A stretch of 56,858 nucleotides of DNA from Patescibacteria group bacterium (GCA_018823885.1 JAHJHG010000005.1:1-56858), one strand, 5' to 3'. Shown: positions 6,654 through 18,777, counted from the first letter of the stretch. Notes: generated by a model not told the origin, from the sequence alone. Numbers and translations are program-made.

Positions 6654-7352
6654 CTACGACGCCGGAGAAGGGGAGATTTCTGGTGTGGGAGTGGAACTCT
6701 CTGCCGGAGTGGGCACAGGGGATGGCGTTGTGGTGGGAACAGCCTCCACCTCTTCGGGGAAAATTTCTAAATCTGAGGCGTCATTTACAACCAGCGTTCT
6801 TGTGTTCTCATTATACTTACCTGTAGCAAATATTCTCCTGTCGACCAATTTTTTCAAATCGATATTTTCCGGCACTTCCAACGCAATCGCTTCGGATGAA
6901 GTCGTAATTAAATAATACTTTGCGTTAATTTCTGTAAATCTTAGTGTTCCAGTGAAGGCAGTGTTTCGAGTAAGTTCTTGTGTCGTGCTTGGAGACTCTG
7001 TTGGTGTATATTCAAAAAACGGTACGTTGAAAGGCAAAATGAAACGCCCGATACCTAAACTAACACTGACGATTATTAACGAAATAGCTATAGCTGTTAG
7101 CGGACGTACTTTTATACGAAACTCTATCCCCTCATTGCCAATTATCCTTTTCCACCAACTCTTAAGATATGTAATAGGATTTGTAACTTTAATATCTACT
7201 AAAGGAAGTTCTTTTTTGCGAAGATCGGGCTTTATTTTCTTTACAGAAACAACGGGGGTTTTTGAAGCCGTGTTTATATTAACAGTTTTAGACTTTTCAT
7301 TCTCGGTAACCGTTTTCTTATAATTTACTCCACTTCCTGCAGAATCCGCCAT
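6654..7352 (-). CDS. Hypothetical single-pass membrane protein with Pro/Thr/Ser-rich C-terminal tail
   Basis: One TM (LTAIAISLIIVSVSLGIG), beta-rich external domain, tail PTTTPSPVPTPAESSTPTPEISPSPAS; TAAACT -10-like box 10 nt upstream. Confidence 0.75.
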   Translation of the reverse strand: MADSAGSGVNYKKTVTENEKSKTVNINTASKTPVVSVKKIKPDLRKKELPLVDIKVTNPITYLKSWWKRIIGNEGIEFRIKVRPLTAIAISLIIVSVSLGIGRFILPFNVPFFEYTPTESPSTTQELTRNTAFTGTLRFTEINAKYYLITTSSEAIALEVPENIDLKKLVDRRIFATGKYNENTRTLVVNDASDLEIFPEEVEAVPTTTPSPVPTPAESSTPTPEISPSPAS

Positions 7353-7423
7353 AACTATTAAAGTTTAGTATTGATTCTGTTATAACGCAATATTTGCTAG
7401 CTTTAATCGACCAAGCTTCTACG

Positions 7424-7433
7424 TTGGGTGACT
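7424..7433. repeat. Left 10-bp direct repeat TTGGGTGACT (putative att core)
   Basis: Identical to 12536-12545, which is the acceptor-stem 3' end of a tRNA-His-like fragment. Confidence 0.6.
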
Positions 7434-7543
7434 TACCGAACGATGTTAGAACCGCTTTAATAAAGCCTGAAGCTAAGGAAATGGAGTTGCTAGCGAGTTT
7501 ATTGTTGAGTAAGAAGACAAAAGAGATTCCCTTGTATCTTTAG
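7424..7543 (+). pseudogene. Mini-ORF/remnant A (LGDLPNDVRTALIKPEAKEMELLASLLL...), possible C-terminal fragment of a site-specific recombinase
   Basis: 54/84 nt and 13/28 aa identical, ungapped, to 9472-9555, including six synonymous codon differences; begins exactly at the direct repeat. Confidence 0.5.
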
Positions 7544-8064
7544 ATTAGTGCCACGATGGCCAACAAGGCTCGCCCTCTATCAGACATATCCTTAAACGTA
7601 TACTCTACACCTTCTACGTAACATATTTTAGCTGAGTCATAAATCAATAAAGCGTTGTGTTTTTCTTCACTATAGTTTTGAGAAAAATGTGGAAGCGAAC
7701 CACAATCAAACAGATATATTTGCTCTACTCCTGAAGCACTAGAAGCACTCACATATCCCGGCATTGTTTTTAGCTTTGGGCTTGGATTTGTTCTATCCGA
7801 TCCATGAACTGATATTTTTTCCAACCTTTCCTTTCTTTCTGCTGGGTTTTCTTCAAGATGAAAAAATCTAAAACGGAATTTTTCTGGAAATTCTTTAACA
7901 TTCAAATCCAGTCTTTCAAACATTGATTGACTGAACTTTTCATTGAAATCTTCGAGGGACAAGGGGTTGATCAAACTGTGCCTTTTTTTAAACATCTCAG
8001 ACGATATTTCGATATAGGGGATCTTTTTTTTACCTATACGAATTATTTTTTCAGATGATGGCAT
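7540..8064 (-). CDS. Hypothetical protein, possibly ADP-ribosyltransferase-like fold
   Basis: 174 aa ORF 9 nt downstream of the AlbA_2 gene. Pattern FRFFH...LEKISVHG...IYLF...LLIYD...VEY resembles the ART strand order (weak, by eye). Confidence 0.6.
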   Translation of the reverse strand: MPSSEKIIRIGKKKIPYIEISSEMFKKRHSLINPLSLEDFNEKFSQSMFERLDLNVKEFPEKFRFRFFHLEENPAERKERLEKISVHGSDRTNPSPKLKTMPGYVSASSASGVEQIYLFDCGSLPHFSQNYSEEKHNALLIYDSAKICYVEGVEYTFKDMSDRGRALLAIVALI

Positions 8065-8073
8065 TTTATTATA

Positions 8074-9372
8074 TTAACCCCCTTTTTCGATTAACTTATT
8101 TTGCCAATCTTCAAGCATTTTTTCTGAAGGATCATTCCAGTTAAACAGCATGAAGACTTTCTTTATGATTTCTCTGGCAACGGCTTTGTGAGACACTTTT
8201 AACTCAACAGTTTGAATATCTTCGTTAATTTCTGCTGGTTCGTCTTTGCAAATGTAATGGGCACCCAAAATAGTTCCCTGACTTGCTTCTAGTTTTCTGT
8301 CTTTAGCTCCATAAAGCTTAAGTTGCAAATGTAGTCTTTTTACTTTTAAGTTTTTAAGATAAAGTCTTTTTAAAAATAGAGTCATTTCAGTTATAGAATA
8401 TATTCTACTTACAAAATACAGGATACTAAGTCCTTTTTTAGAAAATCCCATCATGTCTTCACCAAGCATTGCCGACCAAACAAATAGTCCACTTTTATAT
8501 AAACGCCATGCTTCACTGTGTGGAACTCTTTCACTCCCCGTAATTGACTGTTTCCCATTGTTAAAATTTGAGAAATTTCCATGAACATCAATGTGGGGGA
8601 AATCCCAACCTCTCAATCTTACCTTGCTTTGCTCAACCATCTTTCCAGCTTCAACAGGGTTGTCTATTAATTGATCATTGTAATCATGTGGGTGAACCAC
8701 AAGCTCCCACCTTCCTATCTCCTCAATATTCTCAAGATTGGCTCGGACAAAACCGAGGGCCTCTTTGATGTCATTGTCGAATTTTTTGTTTTTGTCATCT
8801 GCTTTTTTTATTATCGGAGATCCACTCACAATCCTTTTTATTGTTTCGAAAATTTCTTCACTCTTCTTGGTTATCCCTCTTCCTAAAATTCTTCTCATTT
8901 CATCAACGTTGCTTATGGCTTCACTTGTATTTTTCTTGGTTCTTATATACACAGCGCCTTTTGTAAGTAAAATCTCGTTATCCTTTGAGTGGAGTGTTTT
9001 TTTGCAAATAATTGGTTCTTCAGCAAACTCAGGAATGTCTATCACTACTGTTAGTTTGTTGTTCACTTTCATTTTAACAACATCGCAACTTAAGGGCGGG
9101 TCTGCGTACTCTTGAAGAAGTTGGTTAATTGGGGTCGTGTCAAAAGCATAAAATTCCTTTTCGGTTATTCCTACGTGCTTAAACGCCTTATCGGTCACAC
9201 CTATCACAATTTTTCCACCATCTCTCGTGTTTGCCATGGCCATAATGTCTTTGATAATTTCAATTCTTGGGCTTTTGTTTTGCTTGCTCCAAACAAAACC
9301 TTCTTTAAAGTCCTTATTGATCGTTTCGGTTTTTTCTTCAATTAATGCCTTTATGTCTTCTTTTGTAAGCAT
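8074..9372 (-). CDS. AlbA_2/Schlafen-like domain protein with an uncharacterised C-terminal domain
   Basis: TETINKDFKE, IIKDIMAMANTRDGGKIVIGVTD and VYIR motifs of AlbA_2; C-terminal WELVVHP...VRLRGWDFP domain. Confidence 0.85.
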   Translation of the reverse strand: MLTKEDIKALIEEKTETINKDFKEGFVWSKQNKSPRIEIIKDIMAMANTRDGGKIVIGVTDKAFKHVGITEKEFYAFDTTPINQLLQEYADPPLSCDVVKMKVNNKLTVVIDIPEFAEEPIICKKTLHSKDNEILLTKGAVYIRTKKNTSEAISNVDEMRRILGRGITKKSEEIFETIKRIVSGSPIIKKADDKNKKFDNDIKEALGFVRANLENIEEIGRWELVVHPHDYNDQLIDNPVEAGKMVEQSKVRLRGWDFPHIDVHGNFSNFNNGKQSITGSERVPHSEAWRLYKSGLFVWSAMLGEDMMGFSKKGLSILYFVSRIYSITEMTLFLKRLYLKNLKVKRLHLQLKLYGAKDRKLEASQGTILGAHYICKDEPAEINEDIQTVELKVSHKAVAREIIKKVFMLFNWNDPSEKMLEDWQNKLIEKGG

Positions 9373-9471
9373 GTGCTACCCATATTTTAACAGATAGCCA
9401 CTAAGAAAATTGTGAACGAGTGAAGTTTGTCAAGGACTTTTTTAGAATATCCCGAGAATACGGCCATTTCG

Positions 9472-9606
9472 ATGGGTAGACTACCGGATGCTGTTAGAAC
9501 TCATTTTATGACCTCTGAGGATAAGGAAAGGCTGTTATTGACGAAATTTTTGCTTCTTAATAATGATTTTGGTGGAAATATACACACGCTACAATTTACT
9601 ACATAA
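9472..9606 (+). pseudogene. Mini-ORF/remnant B (MGRLPDAVRTHFMTSEDKERLLLTKFLL..., 44 aa), homologous to 7424-7543
   Basis: Ungapped codon alignment with remnant A; ATG 9472, TAA 9604-9606; lies between the AlbA_2 and RM genes. Confidence 0.5.
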
Positions 9607-9622
9607 AAGTAGGCTCAGAAAT

Positions 9623-12403
9623 TCAGATTATTTCTGTCGTAACCCCCTCCACAATCTTAATTTCTTCAGAATTAAGACCATACATATCATAAACTTCTTC
9701 GTTAATCTTCTCATCTATATCTTCCACTCTTTTTTTAAGCACCTCTCTATTGTCTGTAAGGTCAGAAAGATTATCCAACTGTTTTTCAAGCACAATCACC
9801 TTATTTACTAGATCCACTAATTTCTTCTTTTTTCCAATTTTCACAACGAGACTATTAAGATACTTAGGCAAATATTCGTAAGACTCGCCCATTTTTTTTG
9901 ACTTTGATCGAATATAGAAACCAAAAAGTCTGGAGTTCAGCAAACCTAAAAAGTACTTTATATCAACATCGGATTTAGCAAATAGGACAGTCGTATTATG
10001 TCTTGAACCCACCATTCCTTTGTTGTCATAAATGAATATATTATCTTTTGCCCTTGATCTACAAAACAATTTTCCCTCACCCCAAGGGTATTCGATCATA
10101 GGGCGTGCTAATCCCAAACCAAGCTTTTCGTTTCTTCTTTTGTTTCTTTCTAAAATCATTGTTCTGTTTGTTTTCAAATATTTTTTAAGATTGGGGGTTT
10201 TCGATAGATCACTATGTTTATCAATATGTATCATATACTTATTTGTTTCACTAGAAAGATATTTTCTCTGTATATTGGTCGATCTAATAAATTTTCTTAG
10301 ATATTTTTTTTCCAGATTGAAATTTTCTACAGTTTTCTTATCAATAATATATATCTCGTCTAGAGCCGTTAGGGGAGTATTTTTTATATCAAAATGTTTT
10401 GTAATTGGCTCACCCTCATTTTCGAACTTCGCTATCAATTTTGACGCAGTTGGCTTTTCTAAACTCCAAATATCCATCTGCTTCAATTTCACCTGCTTTA
10501 TATAAAAGGGTTTTGTATAAATATCGTCAAGATAAATTGTTATTATATTTTTTTCTGGTTTTTTGTTCCTCAAGGTTATTATCGCAGTATGAACACTCGC
10601 TCCTTCAAAAACTTGCTTCTTTCTAAAATCAATTATTGAAAGTATTTCCACATTATCTAAAAGATATTCTCTAAGCTTCTTAGCATAAACAGATTCCAAA
10701 AAATATCTTGAGACTATAAAAGACATCACGCCTCCTTGCCTTAGAAGTTTTATGCCTTTTAAAATAAAATAGTAGAGCAGGTCATTTTTCCCTGAATATA
10801 TTTCATTATACTTTTGATGAAAATATTCTTTTAATTCACTACTTTGCTTACCTTTTGCCCAGCCCACATAAGGTGGATTGCCTATAACAATATCAAACCC
10901 CCCCTTATCAAAAACATCGGAAAATTCTCTCTCCCAATTAAAAGGCTTTTGATCTCTCCAATCCTCGCCAAAAATTTTCTTAAGGTCTTTTTCTGAGCCT
11001 GATACAAGTGAGTTTCCCACTTTTACGTTGTCTGTCAGCATTGGCAGCTTATGACCTGGCTCTAGAGCCTTTATAAGCATGTTTAATCGAGCTATCTCCG
11101 TTGCCTGAGGGTCTAAATCTACACCGAAAATGCTGTTTTTTAATATCTTATATTTGGTCGACATCTCTCCATTTTTAGACTCATCTTTATCTTTTTTCTT
11201 TGAGTATTCATTTATAACTGCAAATGCTTTAGTTAAGAATGAGCCACTCCCACAGGCTGGGTCTATGATTTTAATATCCCCAATTCTTTCAGGTTGATCA
11301 GAAAGAATATTTCCAAGCGTGTTTCTAACAATATATTCAACGATATAAGAAGGTGTATAGTATATTCCTTGTTTTTTCCTTTTGCTCTTAGTGCCGTCTA
11401 TGCCTTGCACATATCCTAAATATTGTTCATAAACACTGCCCAATACATCAACATCAATGGCATCAAATCTGTATTTAACACCCCTCTCCTTTTCTCCGTA
11501 AAGCTGTGGAATAATTTTAGAGAAAGGGTCACCTTCTGTATTCAATTCTTCGCAAACATGAGGGCTGAAAAGATTACTATTGTATTTCCCGTCAAATTTT
11601 TTAAAAAGGGGTTTTAATACTTTTATAAAGTTGTTCGATTCTCTACGCTCACTTTCCCACTTTTTAAATATTTGCCACAGCTTTTTCTCCTCAAACTCCC
11701 TATCCTCAACAACTCTTATAAAAATAAGCCTGTCTAATATTCTCTGCACTGATTCATTTATTACCTCTTCGCTTTTATCTGTATTCCATTGCAAAAGATT
11801 GTTGGTTAATTTCTCTCTCCAGTTTAACAAGTCTTGAGCTAACTTTTCGTTAACACTCTCTCTAGTAGATGTTATTCCCCATTTCGAAGCTTGCTTTTGA
11901 AGTTCTTTTTGCTCAAAAGACTGCTTAGAAAGTAACCACAAATTATCAAACTCTTTAAGATACTCCTTATAGGTCAAATTAAGATTTGCTTTTGGATGAT
12001 CTATTTTCCACTCTGAATTGAAAAGCTTAAGACCCTCGAAGTCGCTTAAAACGACCCAAGTTATTCCCTTGTTCCACCCATATTCAATTGCCTGCATTGC
12101 CCATTTTTCTTTATTTAGATCTTCAGGAATGGCTTTCGCCTCAAGAATAAACTGCGTAATATTGTTTAATCTAAAAGAGTAGTCAATTCTTCCTCCAACA
12201 ATTGAAGTCTCTTCCTCAACAACTTCATTGTCAACATGCTCATTGTCTACATCCCATCCCAAAGCTTCAAAAAGAGGCATTATAAACATCCTTCGTGTAT
12301 CTGCCTCGTTTATCGTTTTAAGTCTAGTTTCAGAAACACCTTCATATTTTTTAACAAGCCGTTCAATCTTGTTTCTAGCCTCCTTTTTATAATCTACGCT
12401 CAT
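9623..12403 (-). CDS. Type IIG restriction-modification enzyme (fused endonuclease, N6-adenine methyltransferase and target-recognition domain)
   Basis: N-terminal ADTRRMFIMPLFEALGWD and RIDY...ILEAK (PD-(D/E)xK nuclease); GIYYTP, DPACGSGSFL (motif I), GNPPY (motif IV); TaqI_C-like C-terminus. Confidence 0.92.
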   Translation of the reverse strand: MSVDYKKEARNKIERLVKKYEGVSETRLKTINEADTRRMFIMPLFEALGWDVDNEHVDNEVVEEETSIVGGRIDYSFRLNNITQFILEAKAIPEDLNKEKWAMQAIEYGWNKGITWVVLSDFEGLKLFNSEWKIDHPKANLNLTYKEYLKEFDNLWLLSKQSFEQKELQKQASKWGITSTRESVNEKLAQDLLNWREKLTNNLLQWNTDKSEEVINESVQRILDRLIFIRVVEDREFEEKKLWQIFKKWESERRESNNFIKVLKPLFKKFDGKYNSNLFSPHVCEELNTEGDPFSKIIPQLYGEKERGVKYRFDAIDVDVLGSVYEQYLGYVQGIDGTKSKRKKQGIYYTPSYIVEYIVRNTLGNILSDQPERIGDIKIIDPACGSGSFLTKAFAVINEYSKKKDKDESKNGEMSTKYKILKNSIFGVDLDPQATEIARLNMLIKALEPGHKLPMLTDNVKVGNSLVSGSEKDLKKIFGEDWRDQKPFNWEREFSDVFDKGGFDIVIGNPPYVGWAKGKQSSELKEYFHQKYNEIYSGKNDLLYYFILKGIKLLRQGGVMSFIVSRYFLESVYAKKLREYLLDNVEILSIIDFRKKQVFEGASVHTAIITLRNKKPEKNIITIYLDDIYTKPFYIKQVKLKQMDIWSLEKPTASKLIAKFENEGEPITKHFDIKNTPLTALDEIYIIDKKTVENFNLEKKYLRKFIRSTNIQRKYLSSETNKYMIHIDKHSDLSKTPNLKKYLKTNRTMILERNKRRNEKLGLGLARPMIEYPWGEGKLFCRSRAKDNIFIYDNKGMVGSRHNTTVLFAKSDVDIKYFLGLLNSRLFGFYIRSKSKKMGESYEYLPKYLNSLVVKIGKKKKLVDLVNKVIVLEKQLDNLSDLTDNREVLKKRVEDIDEKINEEVYDMYGLNSEEIKIVEGVTTEII

Positions 12404-12537
12404 CGGCCCAATTTTATCATTATTTTAATTTTTCGGAAAGAAAAATGTAATTCCCTCGGCGTTACCGGAGGATTTCCAAACAGCTGACTGGATAGAAAAA
12501 GACAGATTGAATCACATACTAGGAAATATGAGGTCTT

Positions 12538-12564
12538 GGGTGACTGACGGGACTCGAACCCCGT
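12538..12564 (-). pseudogene. 3' fragment of a tRNA (T-arm plus acceptor 3' strand), His-like
   Basis: Minus strand reads ACGGGGTTCGAGTCCCGTCAGTCACCC: GGTTCGAGTCC T-loop plus CAGTCACC acceptor strand. No D-arm or matching 5' acceptor strand found upstream. Confidence 0.65.
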
Positions 12565-12597
12565 AGCACAACCTATGTTTTCTCTGGGTGACCTTTT

Positions 12598-13245
12598 TTA
12601 TTTATTTGTAATTATAGGTAGGATGTGTTTTCGAATAAATGTATATAAAACGGCAATCATTCCAAACCAAAAAATATAAACAAAGAATGTACTGATCACA
12701 TCCGTACCTACAAACCATGCGTGTGCTGCTATTAAGAAAAATACAAAATAATTTAAAATATGAAATTTACGCCAATTTTCTTTCCACCAAACTTCATTTT
12801 TAACTATTGCCGCCAAGATAGCGAGAGATATAAGCCAAAAGGTAATTCTGCCGAAACTATAATAAAGCTCAATCGGCCTTGAACAGAGAAGACAAAAGTC
12901 AGTAAAGACATAAAAGGGATCGAGTACACCTCTTGTTTTGAAATTATAAATAAGAAATAGAAGAGGGTGTACCAATACCAATACGTAAGCAACAAACCCT
13001 TGAATTAGATGAAATTTAAAAATCCACGCTCCAAATTTTTCTTTCCACTTCTGCATAAATGCCCCGAGAATAATTTGCACAAACAATAAACTAAAAACAA
13101 CTAATCCTAAAATCCTTTGAAAAATATTAATTAAAAGAGGAACATTCTGGGTAATATCAAAAACTTTGACTGACTTTAATACAGCAAAAGGGCCTGACAA
13201 TAAAATAATAAACCATATAATAATAAAAGAAAGTTTTGATTTCAT
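12598..13245 (-). CDS. Ferric reductase-like transmembrane domain protein (MsrQ/Ferric_reduct family, no flavin domain)
   Basis: About 6 TMs with paired His residues (FHLIQG, VHP, FHILNY, AHA) spaced as in heme-b-binding ferric reductase TM domains; W..LH-like motif. Confidence 0.75.
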   Translation of the reverse strand: MKSKLSFIIIWFIILLSGPFAVLKSVKVFDITQNVPLLINIFQRILGLVVFSLLFVQIILGAFMQKWKEKFGAWIFKFHLIQGFVAYVLVLVHPLLFLIYNFKTRGVLDPFYVFTDFCLLCSRPIELYYSFGRITFWLISLAILAAIVKNEVWWKENWRKFHILNYFVFFLIAAHAWFVGTDVISTFFVYIFWFGMIAVLYTFIRKHILPIITNK

Positions 13246-13272
13246 GAGTAATTATTTGAAGTATACCAGAAG

Positions 13273-13354
13273 AAAAAGGGACTTACGGGTGGAGCTTGAG
13301 AGATAATGTTTCAAACTATACGGTGTTATACCGCAAGTCTTCTCAAGCCCCACC
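13273..13354 (-). ncRNA. Structured 3'-UTR element or terminator with two competing helices
   Basis: 14-bp stem (13341-13354 with 13288-13301, one G-U pair) and 8-bp stem (13332-13339 with 13280-13287), followed by a U-tract at 13273-13277. Confidence 0.55.
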
Positions 13355-13364
13355 TTTGTCGCAC

Positions 13365-13652
13365 CTACCCCGAGAGAGAAGCCAAAACCGCTGTTGAAGA
13401 TGCTATCATCATTGCTATTACGGCAAGTAGCAAGAGGCTATTGGTACGCTTTCTAGCGCTGTCATCTGAATTAGATAACATTGCAAAAACGTACATAATT
13501 AGTGAAATCACAAAAGAAAGTGAAAACACAACATCTAAAACGAAAGCCCAAGTCGAAACGTCAGGATCTGGTAATTTCCTGTACAAATGGATCGACGCAG
13601 TGGCAATCACTATTAGTGCAATCACAGCTAATAATATGCGTTTCTTGTCCAC
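13365..13652 (-). CDS. Small hypothetical membrane protein (3 TM)
   Basis: 95 aa, three hydrophobic segments, GTG start preceded by perfect Shine-Dalgarno AAGGAGGT. Confidence 0.75.
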   Translation of the reverse strand: MDKKRILLAVIALIVIATASIHLYRKLPDPDVSTWAFVLDVVFSLSFVISLIMYVFAMLSNSDDSARKRTNSLLLLAVIAMMIASSTAVLASLSG

Positions 13653-13674
13653 GCTTTTACCTCCTTATAGGTAG

Positions 13675-14211
13675 TTATGCAGGTCTTGCTCTCACGTAGA
13701 GTGCAAGTATAGAATTCGAGCGCTTGTTGATTAATCTTTCTCGTTTCGTTAGATGATTCAAGGAGCGCCTAAGCTCGGCGAGTTCTTTGTCAAATTCGCC
13801 GACTAATTTTTCATACTCCTTCTTGAGTTTGTCATACTCCGCCCCAATCTCTTCAAAAGCCAAGGATGTTGTTAATCTCTCCTCAGGCTTTTGGCCTTTC
13901 ATGATAAAAGCAAGCTGCATCTGTGCATCAACTTTAAGCTTGAAAAGTTGAGTTATTCTTCTTATTTCTTGGTTTTTCTGATCGGCTTGCTCCATCCTCA
14001 ATTCAAGCGCCGTCATTTCCATACCTATCTTGCGTAATGTTGTGGCACATCGATGTAAATACTTCTTCGCTTTTATGAAACGAAGAAAAAATGGGCCATA
14101 CTTCTTCCATATTCTCTTTGACATCACATTCTTACTGAAAGCAGCCCATATGTGGAAAACAAGCACAAATACTAATACCACAGCCAAGTAAGACAGCAGT
14201 TGCGTGAACAT
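13675..14211 (-). CDS. Hypothetical membrane-anchored coiled-coil protein
   Basis: N-terminal TM, heptad-rich body, SD AAAGGAG, consensus promoter upstream. Confidence 0.75.
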   Translation of the reverse strand: MFTQLLSYLAVVLVFVLVFHIWAAFSKNVMSKRIWKKYGPFFLRFIKAKKYLHRCATTLRKIGMEMTALELRMEQADQKNQEIRRITQLFKLKVDAQMQLAFIMKGQKPEERLTTSLAFEEIGAEYDKLKKEYEKLVGEFDKELAELRRSLNHLTKRERLINKRSNSILALYVRARPA

Positions 14212-14270
14212 TTTCTTTTCTCCTTTAAGGTGCGAATTTTTGGAATTAGTCTCTTTATCAGACTTGCAGA

Positions 14271-14299
14271 ATTATATAATTCTAGAAGACAAAAGTCAA
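14271..14299 (-). promoter_or_regulatory. Sigma70-type promoter TTGACT-N17-TATAAT with a 16-bp palindrome over the -10 box
   Basis: -35 at 14294-14299, -10 at 14271-14276; perfect palindrome AGAATTATATAATTCT at 14268-14283. Confidence 0.75.
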
Positions 14300-14316
14300 A
14301 CTATGGGTTATGAATG

Positions 14317-14390
14317 TGGTCGTGACAGGACTCGAACCTGTGGCCTCCGCAATGTGAATGCGGCGCTCTAGCCAACTGAGCTACACGACC
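14317..14390 (-). tRNA. tRNA-Val (anticodon CAC), CCA not encoded
   Basis: GGTCGTGTAGCTCAGTTGGCTAGAGCGCCGCATTCACATTGCGGAGGCCACAGGTTCGAGTCCTGTCACGACCA folds into a full cloverleaf; anticodon arm CCGCA-TTCACAT-TGCGG. Confidence 0.97.
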
Positions 14391-14445
14391 AAATAGTTAT
14401 TTCTTAACCCTGAATTTTATCATCTTCAGCGTTTCTTTAACAGGA

Positions 14446-14475
14446 TTGACATCCTAGTCTCTCTTTCGCTAAAGT
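14446..14475 (+). promoter_or_regulatory. Putative promoter of the GuaB/GuaC-like gene (TTGACA-N18-TAAAGT)
   Basis: Perfect -35 at 14446-14451 and near-consensus -10 at 14470-14475. Confidence 0.55.
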
Positions 14476-14506
14476 TAAATGTAATGATTCATATCATTAC
14501 GTAAGT

Positions 14507-17715: not shown

Positions 17716-18777
17716 TCAAGCCACACTTGGTTTCTGGCTCCCTAATGCTATCCCTAAACCTATCATTGTGGCTAGAAGTGATGATCCACCCGCAGAAACA
17801 AGAGGCAGAGGAACACCTGTAATAGGAAGTAAACCTAGATTCATTCCTATATGAATTAGTGTCTCTATAAATAGTGTCAGAAAAAGCCCGGAGACAAACG
17901 CCCGTGCAGCAAAACTTCTTGCCGATTCGATTATTATTATTAAGCGCCAAAAAATGACGAACAAGCCTAAAATAACAATAGTCGCACCAATAAACCCTAG
18001 CTCCTCAGAAACAGCGGCAAAGATAAAGTCCGTATGTTTTTCGGGAAGAAATGCTAACTGCGTTTGAACTCCCTTTCCTAAACCTCTACCCGCAAGCATG
18101 CCAGAGCCCACAGACACCATAGATTGAATACTGTTGTAACCTGCTCCAAGAGGATCAGCGCTTGGATTAAGAAATGAAAAAACTCTTGATCGCTGGTAAG
18201 GAGCCAATAACTTCCACCCCAGAGGCATAGCAATAAAGACAATCGCTATACTCGTCAAAAGATATTTTCTATTTAAACCTGATGCCAAAACAACCCCGAT
18301 AAAACCTAACGTGGTTAAAACGGCTACGCCAAAAGATGGCGCAATAACAATTAAAAAGAGAGGAAGAGCAAACAAAAATAGCGCCTTGGCTAACCTTTTA
18401 ATATCCAAAGATTTTTCCGTTAAGTAGTTAGCAAAAAAAACTAACAAAAAAGGTCTGACTATTTCAGCCGGCTGAATACTCAAAGGTCCAATTGGTATCC
18501 ATCTTACTGCTCCCCTTGTGACCTGCCCTATTAACAACGGTAAGAGTAGTAAGATGATACTTCCCCAATATATATGTGTCGAAAATAGAGAAATAATTTC
18601 GAAATCAATTGCCAAGAATAGAAAAAATACCAAAATAGAAAGAACGAAATATAGATAATAAAGAGGGAAAATTGAAGGTGCAATGGATCGTAAAACGATA
18701 ACGCTTAATAGAAATAGTAAACTTATGCTGATAAAGAGAATGTAATCAATACTTACCTTTTTTGATATTTCTGGCAT
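17716..18777 (-). CDS. rodA: Rod shape-determining SEDS glycosyltransferase RodA
   Basis: GAVRWI..G..SIQPAE, YQRSR...FLNP..DPLGAGY...QS, FLPEKHTDFIF, GVPLPLVSAGGSS. Confidence 0.9.
   Translation of the reverse strand: MPEISKKVSIDYILFISISLLFLLSVIVLRSIAPSIFPLYYLYFVLSILVFFLFLAIDFEIISLFSTHIYWGSIILLLLPLLIGQVTRGAVRWIPIGPLSIQPAEIVRPFLLVFFANYLTEKSLDIKRLAKALFLFALPLFLIVIAPSFGVAVLTTLGFIGVVLASGLNRKYLLTSIAIVFIAMPLGWKLLAPYQRSRVFSFLNPSADPLGAGYNSIQSMVSVGSGMLAGRGLGKGVQTQLAFLPEKHTDFIFAAVSEELGFIGATIVILGLFVIFWRLIIIIESARSFAARAFVSGLFLTLFIETLIHIGMNLGLLPITGVPLPLVSAGGSSLLATMIGLGIALGSQKPSVA

Follow-up and report, generated by a model that had tools for sequence, protein, structure and literature searches.

The DNA analysed in this study, referred to as the window, is a stretch of 56,858 nucleotides (nt) from a Patescibacteria group bacterium (GCA_018823885.1 JAHJHG010000005.1:1-56858), in which two homologous plus-strand repeats, copies A and B, border cassettes of cargo genes beside a decayed tRNA-His gene. 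The order of the locus is flank, A, a cassette encoding proteins of 174 and 432 amino acids (aa), B, a cassette encoding a type IIG restriction-modification enzyme, and the tRNA-His remnant, an arrangement that may represent at least two stacked insertions that have lost their mobility genes or never had them in cis. We favour, with moderate confidence, the reading that A and B are attL-type P' arms carrying the displaced 3' end of an open reading frame (ORF) that spans the attachment site attP, and are thus scars of serial integration; they are probably not working peptide genes. P' denotes that half of attP which would come to lie at attL, on the side far from the tRNA.

Copy A (7424-7543, plus strand) consists of a core, TTGGGTGACT (7424..7433, plus strand), followed by a P' arm of subfamily 1. 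The core is the reverse complement of the tRNA-His 3' end (CCA, C73 and acceptor strand), and the arm (7425..7543, plus strand) comprises a 26-nt block conserved at the DNA level, GGTGACTTACCGAACGATGTTAGAAC, and then a tail ORF, GDLPNDVRTALIKPEAKEMELLASLLLSKKTKEIPLYL, closed by a stop codon (7541-7543) that overlaps the stop of the minus-strand gene at 7540-8064, as a preliminary description of this DNA had stated. Copy B (9472..9606, plus strand) consists of the core ATGGGTAGAC and a P' arm of subfamily 2 with the tail ORF MGRLPDAVRTHFMTSEDKERLLLTKFLLLNNDFGGNIHTLQFTT and its stop. Directly to its left lies the remnant of a P arm (9424..9471, plus strand; ..GAATATCCCGAGAATACGGCCATTTCG, in frame ..LEYPENTAIS), and this arm is also found in five other repeat-bearing loci (L001, L002, L003, L009 and L010).

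The two copies align without gaps at 54/84 nt, against 39-40/84 for the best unrelated 84-mer in the whole window on both strands (background mean 21.6, standard deviation 4.0), and their similarity is real. The residue identity of 13/28 and the six synonymously differing codons given in the preliminary description were reproduced, as was the exact recurrence of the 10 bases that open A at 12536-12545, the opening of the tRNA fragment. The coding constraint which that description had read from the A/B pair does not emerge from the pair alone, the 30 mismatches falling 10/8/12 over the three codon positions; the constraint is genuine but visible only across the whole family. In profile searches, A was matched at 7425-7503 by the DNA profile (nhmmer, E 1e-19) and by the hidden Markov model (HMM) of the tail (E 6e-18; relatives P0001-P0005), and B was matched at 9472-9551 (nhmmer, E 1e-16) and by the tail HMM (E 9e-16).

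A profile built from A and B retrieved five ORFs of 43-68 aa with the motif MG.LPNDVRT....EAKEMELLASLLLSKK from short metagenome contigs, each of which carries two or three copies flanking single small genes. Further loci (L004-L012 and L018-L020) were collected from species-representative genomes, metagenome contigs and look-ups of hits. About 50 copies are present in 15 loci (L001-L012 and L018-L020), with 2-7 copies per locus, always on one strand, and with a median spacing of 1.39 kb between successive copies (quartiles 0.86 and 2.43 kb). A profile search of 1.84 billion representative proteins yielded 58 clusters (50% identity), nearly all of 29-110 aa, and in most of them the match begins at residue 1. 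No family or domain match was obtained for the ORF family formed by tail and P arm. The cassettes between copies typically hold one or two genes, in either orientation, for AAA_33/zeta-like kinases, GIY-YIG, NYN, HIT and NUDIX proteins, cold-shock protein (CSD), EamA, peptidase S51 and APH; no recombinase is found among the cargo genes of the arrays.

Other features of the family were recorded alongside. Cargo-less P'-P units of about 175 nt occur in two different samples (L001 640-845 and L003 68-240); in them the stop codon of one tail ORF and the start codon of the following unit's P arm, MN[FY][VI]EVYYP..TAK., overlap as ATGA. Some copies lie on contigs labelled as metagenome-assembled genomes of Bathyarchaeia (L004) and Gammaproteobacteria (L007), labels that are likely due to mis-binning, since L007 is syntenic over long stretches with L005, a Patescibacteria contig. 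Three matches of the tail profile within P0064, a 988-aa protein with cell-wall-binding repeats, arise through GSLPDNVRTEL, apparently an unrelated look-alike.

The arrays are anchored at tRNA-His. All seven loci that are long enough (L005, L006, L007, L008, L010, L018 and L019) have an intact tRNA-His(gtg) beyond the last copy, downstream and on the opposite strand, and the window has the same layout, but with a decayed tRNA-His. Each copy opens with the reverse complement of the tRNA-His 3' end, in which TGG corresponds to CCA, the next G to C73 and the remainder to part of the acceptor strand, and left of this core the sequence is unrelated between most copies. The copies of L005-L010 have TGGG(G)T and a partial acceptor strand in common with the tRNA-His of their own locus. 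The shared core measures only about 5-13 nt; most of the repeat derives from the element (P') and not from the tRNA.

The core is demonstrated to be a recombination joint, as shared cargo and recombinase genes all break there in three independent comparisons. A GIY-YIG cassette ends ..GTCGAATGGGT in two genomes, and is followed by the body of tRNA-His in one (L006) and by a family copy in the other (L008). The CSD cassette of L003 and L009 is homologous as far as TATGGG and not beyond. L016 and L015 show 74% identity along the gene of a large serine recombinase (LSR) as far as GGGGTGGCTGA, after which L015 continues into tRNA-His and L016 into unrelated element DNA. As a separate observation, a 434-bp mini-cassette of L006 (17399-17833), holding only a 94-aa GIY-YIG gene, adjoins the tRNA-His; on its far side it is bordered by a direct repeat (18/20 nt) of the 3' end of tRNA-His and not by the tail element, and the same mini-cassette occurs internally in the L008 array.

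The first 26 nt after the G-run (GGT RRC YTA CCG AAC GAT GTT MGA AC) are conserved at third codon positions too, and CCG is kept in 28/30 copies in genomes of 35-40% G+C. This third-position conservation suggests a constraint at the DNA level, for example that of a recombinase half-site. Past the block, third positions are about twice as variable as the others in all three subfamilies, and the ratio of nonsynonymous to synonymous polymorphism (pN/pS) in the frame given by the preliminary description is 0.29, 0.42 and 0.41 in the three subfamilies, against 0.8-1.9 in the other two frames. This pattern indicates that the tail frame was under purifying selection at the protein level. At the core, the start codon is ATG in 16/30 copies and TTG in several more, and 6/30 copies read TGG GGT and have no start; overall, a start codon is absent there from about a quarter to a half of the copies.

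On the left of the core, about 45-60 nt forming the P arm are conserved in B, L001, L002b, L003, L009_9657 and L010_8563 (TATCCC.A.AATACGGCC.WWTC.ATG). The arm is in frame with the tail in some copies (..YPENTAxSMG..) and in another frame in others, which suggests that it is conserved mainly as DNA. In serine integrases, the distal motif of the P-type half-site lies 5 bp further out than that of the B-type half-site. When the distal motif of all copies (..TAGAACC or ..TCGGACC) was compared with the T-loop part of the tRNA-His of the same locus, the best agreement was obtained at an outward shift of +5 nt (identity 0.45), with a second peak at -2 (0.42) and a background of 0.16-0.25.

The recombinase genes that read across this core are LSR genes of related elements. 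Full-length relatives of an LSR remnant in L010 (P0007-P0014) have 506-543 aa with Resolvase, Recombinase and Zn-ribbon domains (PF00239, PF07508 and PF13408), and their C-termini translate tRNA antisense (e.g. ..SLRVTDGNRTRN, ..SGVADAARTRD and ..FGVAEGTRTPD); the C-terminus ..SLRVTDGNRTRN of P0007 and P0008 translates GGGTGACTGACGGG, the same sequence as in the tRNA remnant of the window. The intact LSR genes of L015 (5898-7466) and L017 (10001-11572) overlap tRNA-His at 7410-7485 and 11515-11591, respectively. The elements, at least 6-11 kb in size, carry the LSR gene at their edge next to the tRNA and have primase-type genes as well; far-end direct repeats of the elements of L013, L015 and L017 were found nowhere within the contigs. 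P0013 (L016) is the non-integrated counterpart of P0014 (L015), the two being the same gene. Beyond the core, P0013 has 33 element-encoded codons and P0014 has 17 tRNA-antisense codons, the tails being VADVPYFEPHIQLFQQLFQAYPDYKQQFAYANL in L016 and VADAARTRDLMVHNHPL in L015, each closed by a stop. It is thus shown directly that in this sister subfamily the recombinase frame crosses attP and the tail is swapped on integration. Homology between the A/B tail and the P'-encoded tail of P0013 was rejected, with an hhalign probability of 0.2%.

An LSR remnant also meets the repeat family itself. The 5'-truncated LSR at L010:1565-2503 retains the C-terminal 300 residues (Zn_ribbon_recom), and its 3' end enters the copy L010_2434. 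Reading through a tRNA attachment site appears to characterise the LSR clade as a whole. In L014 an LSR relative (10001-11533) overlaps tRNA-Leu(gag) at 11513-11596, and P0018 and P0020 of the same clade have tails from other tRNA antisenses, e.g. ..TGFEPVLPP and ..RFELPTLRFEA.

In the mechanism proposed here, A and B would be two independently acquired P' arms from the attachment sites of one family of integrative elements. The mimic of the tRNA-His 3' end in each copy would be the crossover core, the 26-nt block presumably a recombinase half-site, and the 25-30 or so codons after it would have been shaped by selection at the protein level while in the donor elements. An LSR is the most likely recombinase, with its gene at the other end of the element and reading across the core. 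P' of the free element would then encode the last 10-35 codons of the LSR; on integration, tRNA-His antisense would replace these codons and the old tail would be stranded at attL, where A and B would be inert. With the tRNA on the minus strand, integration is predicted to leave flank-core-P' on the far side (attL) and P-core-tRNA on the near side (attR), and a second insertion to produce an internal P-core-P' junction. A would fit attL and B an internal hybrid junction that keeps about 45 nt of the P arm of the previous element, and the decayed tRNA-His would mark the near end of the stack.

The comparison of the window (7393-14312) with the syntenic locus L011 (1504-8155) revealed flanks with 68-74% nt identity and an interior that is unrelated except for the repeats. 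L011 has the same flanking genes, wholly different cargo and two family copies of its own, and the homology ends near 7392, 31 nt from A. In both loci tRNA-His is present as a decayed copy only. The copies closest to A come from other samples (74% protein identity to P0002), and B is closer to P0005/L002a-type copies than to A (38% identity); these affinities indicate separate donors and acquisitions and not a local duplication. No recombinase is present among the Pfam-annotated genes at 0-24.6 kb, and neither a profile of the serine recombinases nor a phmmer search for a tyrosine integrase with the L014 integrase, a weak test, gave a match in the window.

The preliminary description had proposed that the repeats are tails of recombinase genes whose frame crosses attP, left by serial integration at the tRNA end with no resident integrase, and this proposal is broadly right. 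It agrees in outline with the opening of the repeats at a demonstrated joint at the tRNA-His 3' end, the crossing of the core by LSR genes of related elements, the LSR remnant abutting a family copy, the exchange of cargo inside the same flanking genes in L011 with its left breakpoint so close to A, and the lack of a recombinase within 0-24.6 kb of the window. It requires correction in three respects: the tRNA is tRNA-His, the recombinase is most likely an LSR, and a third segment, C, which had been counted as a repeat, is no demonstrable member. No intact recombinase bearing this particular tail was found.

Segment C (12462..12536, plus strand) has a 17/24-nt match to the block of A and no core. 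An 18/24 resemblance to A had been claimed for it; 17/24 was found over the first 24 nt of A. Matches of at least 17/24 to this 24-mer occur at four places in the window (A, B, C and 18302), about one being expected by chance, and that at 18302-18325 (17/24), antisense within a gene of the FtsW family, was taken as the expected chance match. C is missed by the DNA profile of 30 copies (nhmmer --max, E>10), and neither the tail profile nor that of the recombinase C-terminus, both at the protein level, detects it (E>50); with only the 17/24-nt match left, its membership of the family is not established. By eye, the frame of C (..LNH + 9 aa + core) resembles the end of a recombinase gene entering the tRNA remnant.

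The tRNA fragment (12537..12584, minus strand) still shows CCA, C73, the 3' strand of the acceptor, the T arm and a small piece of the anticodon loop with the GTG anticodon (..TTGTG..), by which it is identified as a decayed tRNA-His. It is without the 5' half and is called by neither ARAGORN nor Rfam. A second core, TGGGTGAC (12585..12592, plus strand), lies directly after this 48-nt remnant, which is thereby bracketed by two cores; TGGGTGAC has 4 matches in the window against 0.61 expected. The only intact tRNA of the window is tRNA-Val(cac) at 14316-14390, which is unrelated to the fragment. As an intact tRNA-His is absent from the 56.9-kb window and from the syntenic contig L011, the functional gene must lie elsewhere in the lineage. 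This absence recalls the tRNA-dependent lysogeny of phages, in which integration disrupts the target tRNA (PMC10865867).

The first cargo cassette (7540..9372, minus strand) encodes the 174-aa protein, for which no family match was obtained, and the 432-aa protein, which has a Schlafen/AlbA_2 N-terminal domain and matches the candidate defence family PDC-S50. The second (9623..12403, minus strand) encodes a 926-aa type IIG restriction-modification enzyme of the Eco57I/MmeI type, with a Pfam match and a full-length match to PADLOC REase_MTase_IIG (E 8e-120). The left border of the variable region (7393..7423, plus strand), i.e. the 31 nt between the end of the L011 synteny (~7392) and the core, may be a degenerate remnant of a P arm (AATCGACCAAGCTTCTACGT vs AATACGGCCAAATCTA, a likeness seen by eye only). 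The non-cargo genes at 0-24.6 kb are housekeeping genes, namely those for glycosyltransferases, IMPDH, signal peptidase, ParB, FtsW, IleRS, FtsZ and FtsA.

The divergence from L011 continues beyond the tRNA-His remnant up to tRNA-Val (window 12598-14312 vs L011 5250-8155). This part of the window adds three genes, for a 215-aa ferric-reductase-like membrane protein, a 122-aa protein and a 178-aa protein, and in L011 a T-arm-like scrap (8092-8122) adjoins the tRNA-Val. An exact 15-nt direct repeat, AGAAGACAAAAGTCA, is found at 12887-12901, inside the 215-aa gene, and at 14284-14298, left of tRNA-Val, with an 87% copy at 7512-7526, inside A; it may be the mark of another insertion. In the comparison of runs X3 and X5 with the window (7426-7528, 9473-9506 and 12588-12596), the groundwater assemblies break at A and at the tRNA remnant, and the conserved block is present twice on contigs that belong to other organisms of these samples; the element is therefore repeated across the community.

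A number of observations weigh against taking A and B as stranded ends of LSR genes. No LSR fused to the A/B tail was found among the 1.84 billion representatives or in a word-indexed set of 5.8 billion, the latter searched with P arm plus tail; both returned only short ORFs. Intact LSRs are missing from every array, and family copies from every one of the LSR loci L013-L017. The P arm resembles the LSR C-terminus by eye only, and not by HMM or hhalign. At L010, the only junction between an LSR and a copy, the LSR is read in the +1 frame with respect to the tail frame under selection, and it has to be assumed that this junction is a hybrid of two different elements, as tandem insertion predicts. 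Many ORFs have a recurrent Met 15-16 codons before the core, which also fits a separate small gene spanning attP. The cassettes, with a median of 1.4 kb, are far smaller than the LSR-bearing elements. Since attB is normally destroyed by LSR integration, a further assumption is required if one tRNA is to be used repeatedly, and five to seven insertions at a single site are not easily accounted for by the chemistry of serine integrases. These unfitting points keep two variants alive, one with cassettes moved in trans and one with a separate small ORF, and they hold our confidence at the level stated above.

The first variant retains the same family of attachment sites and supposes that recombinase-less cassettes, each a unit of P', cargo and P, are moved in trans like integron cassettes: a serine recombinase encoded elsewhere would insert them at the tRNA-His end or at a resident P-core-P', and A and B would be working sites and not scars. 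This is a real possibility, though one that we consider doubtful. It would suit the total of about 50 copies with no recombinase gene in any array, the small size of the cassettes (median 1.39 kb, typically 1-2 genes) and the cargo-less P'-P units of L001 and L003. The P arm, kept over about 45-60 nt in at least six copies from different samples and in different frames, and thus conserved at the DNA level, points the same way, as does the occurrence of the same cassette in different arrays beside different neighbours. However, neither a circular cassette nor an empty site was seen, and the groundwater runs, covered as assembled contigs only, show no excision joints, the few apparent "joints" being arrays of other organisms. 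Most junctions are also without a recognisable P arm, no helper recombinase was identified for this tail family, and repeated integration into attL- or attR-like sites is not known for serine integrases.

The second variant, which we regard as unlikely, takes the site-spanning ORF as a small gene of its own, of about 58 aa (MN[FL][VI]EVYYP..TA.SMG.LPNDVRT...LLL..), and not as the end of a recombinase gene. Such a gene would be intact only in the attP form and split by integration, and would thereby act as a state-dependent switch of the element. The recurrent upstream Met (P0001, P0077, P0079, P0057, P0038 and P0058), the selection on the tail frame, the lack of an LSR-tail fusion in the databases and the out-of-register LSR frame of L010 are all consistent with it. 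Against these stand the occurrence of the P arm in other frames elsewhere (IPxIRPKRSMG in P0081, P0088 and P0030), a frameshift in B, the lack of any family or domain match, and the sister element L016, in which the LSR ORF itself crosses the core.

The preliminary description had offered as its second proposal that each copy is an expressed 35-45-aa antitoxin or regulator serving the adjacent defence cassette. The purifying selection on the frame across the family, the ATG at the core in 16/30 copies with TTG in several more, and the presence of one copy per cassette boundary could be read in this way; however, evolution inside the donor element, prior to integration, accounts for the selection just as well. 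Upstream of the core the copies are unrelated in sequence and have no promoter or ribosome-binding site that is conserved, and the conserved frame extends upstream of the supposed start. The 6/30 copies with TGG GGT have no start codon, and the C-termini are truncated at differing places. The cassettes carry unrelated genes in either orientation (kinase, NUDIX, CSD, restriction-modification, peptidase and others) with no conserved partner gene, and copies without cargo exist (L001 and L003). A role of this kind has little support and is considered highly improbable.

An origin of the repeats as attC sites of a chromosomal integron, or of a cluster of attC sites lacking an integrase (CALIN), despite the integron-like layout of same-strand 80-175-nt repeats separating cassettes of 0.5-3 kb, has next to no probability and was ruled out, as both strands of A and B fold no better than shuffles (DNA z -1.3, -1.3, 0.0 and +0.4), there is no R''/R' inverted core pair and no significant dyad symmetry (best complementarity 0.43, z ~2.9, 100 candidate centres), and no IntI-type integrase occurs in any annotated locus, the anchor of the arrays being a tRNA gene and not attI.

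Three other candidates were rejected. For a phage origin or a phage attP, two scans of a viral contig collection gave no match. For a structured RNA or pseudo-tRNA, A and B gave no ARAGORN call and no Rfam match; over 7200-14500 only the tRNA-Val reaches the Rfam threshold, and A, B and C are without a match even at E up to 10. For the repeats of a diversity-generating retroelement, the A/B mismatches are not adenine-specific, as judged by eye and with no formal test, and no reverse transcriptase was seen among the annotated nearby genes.

The feature is best described as serial site-specific integration at a tRNA gene; what is unusual is the reading of LSRs across the tRNA-His attachment site and the long recombinase-less arrays. 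Tandem tRNA islands (Islander, PMC4383910) are alike in their insertion at tRNA 3' ends, direct repeats at the borders, stacked insertions and defence cargo. The known islands differ in using tyrosine integrases, one per island, whereas no cassette here has an integrase, and according to the same paper only tyrosine integrases, and not serine integrases, are known to target tRNA genes. LSR elements of the phiC31/Bxb1/A118 type resemble the relatives found here in the Resolvase, Recombinase and Zn-ribbon domains, the position of the gene at the edge beside att, and the short att arms. Here, in contrast, the target is a tRNA, the recombinase ORF crosses the crossover and its last 10-35 codons are state-dependent, and stacking at one site is unexpected from the usual one-way attP x attB chemistry.

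The "suicidal" tyrosine integrases of SSV type (PF16795) also have att inside the gene, and a 2021 review (PMC8371274) reports them only in Archaea. The location of att within a recombinase gene, the tRNA target and the border gene fragments that record past insertions are common to both systems; in the SSV type, however, the gene is cut into two inactive halves (PMC8371274), whereas the recombinases found here are bacterial serine recombinases that exchange just the extreme C-terminus and whose catalytic body stays intact. According to PMC9262239, which reviews the work of Broussard et al. 2013 on integration-dependent immunity, in mycobacteriophages of clusters G, N and P an ORF crosses attP at a tRNA target and its C-terminus is altered by integration. 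In those phages the ORF is the repressor, unlike the one considered here, integration is carried out by an enzyme of the tyrosine class, and the tail that is lost serves as a degradation tag of ssrA type, for which a role has been demonstrated. Integron arrays and CALINs share the short conserved sites between one- or two-gene cassettes, the single strand and, often, the lack of a recombinase nearby, but they differ from the present arrays, which have no attC hairpins, IntI or attI, are anchored at tRNA-His and carry a coding frame in their sites. In a limited literature search, no paper describing such arrays in Patescibacteria was found.

More tentatively than the cassettes moved in trans, the arrays may be viewed as an integron-like platform for gene capture in Patescibacteria at the tRNA-His 3' end, where recombinase-less cassettes of 0.5-3 kb, often with defence or stress genes and bounded by a coding attP-like site, would be inserted and shuffled by an LSR acting in trans, and where a recombinase C-terminus or small ORF would be rebuilt only in the P-core-P' state. 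If true, the principle of the cassette array would have been invented a second time, by an unrelated mechanism, in a group whose genomes are very small. If the favoured reading of A and B holds, serine recombinases would join the tRNA-targeting enzymes, which was not known according to PMC4383910, and a bacterial recombinase frame would cross its own att site, a property that PMC8371274 restricts to the tyrosine integrases of Archaea. By swapping its C-terminal tail on integration, such an enzyme could tell a free element from an integrated one.

For annotation, the many "hypothetical proteins" of 30-70 aa belonging to this family are most likely remnants of sites, and the repeat (TGGGT..YTACCGAAYGAYGTTMGNAC) offers a simple sequence handle for locating the arrays in metagenomes. 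If the reading is true, the tRNA-His 3' end would be a conserved hotspot at which bacteria of the Candidate Phyla Radiation, with their tiny genomes, acquire and swap defence and accessory genes.

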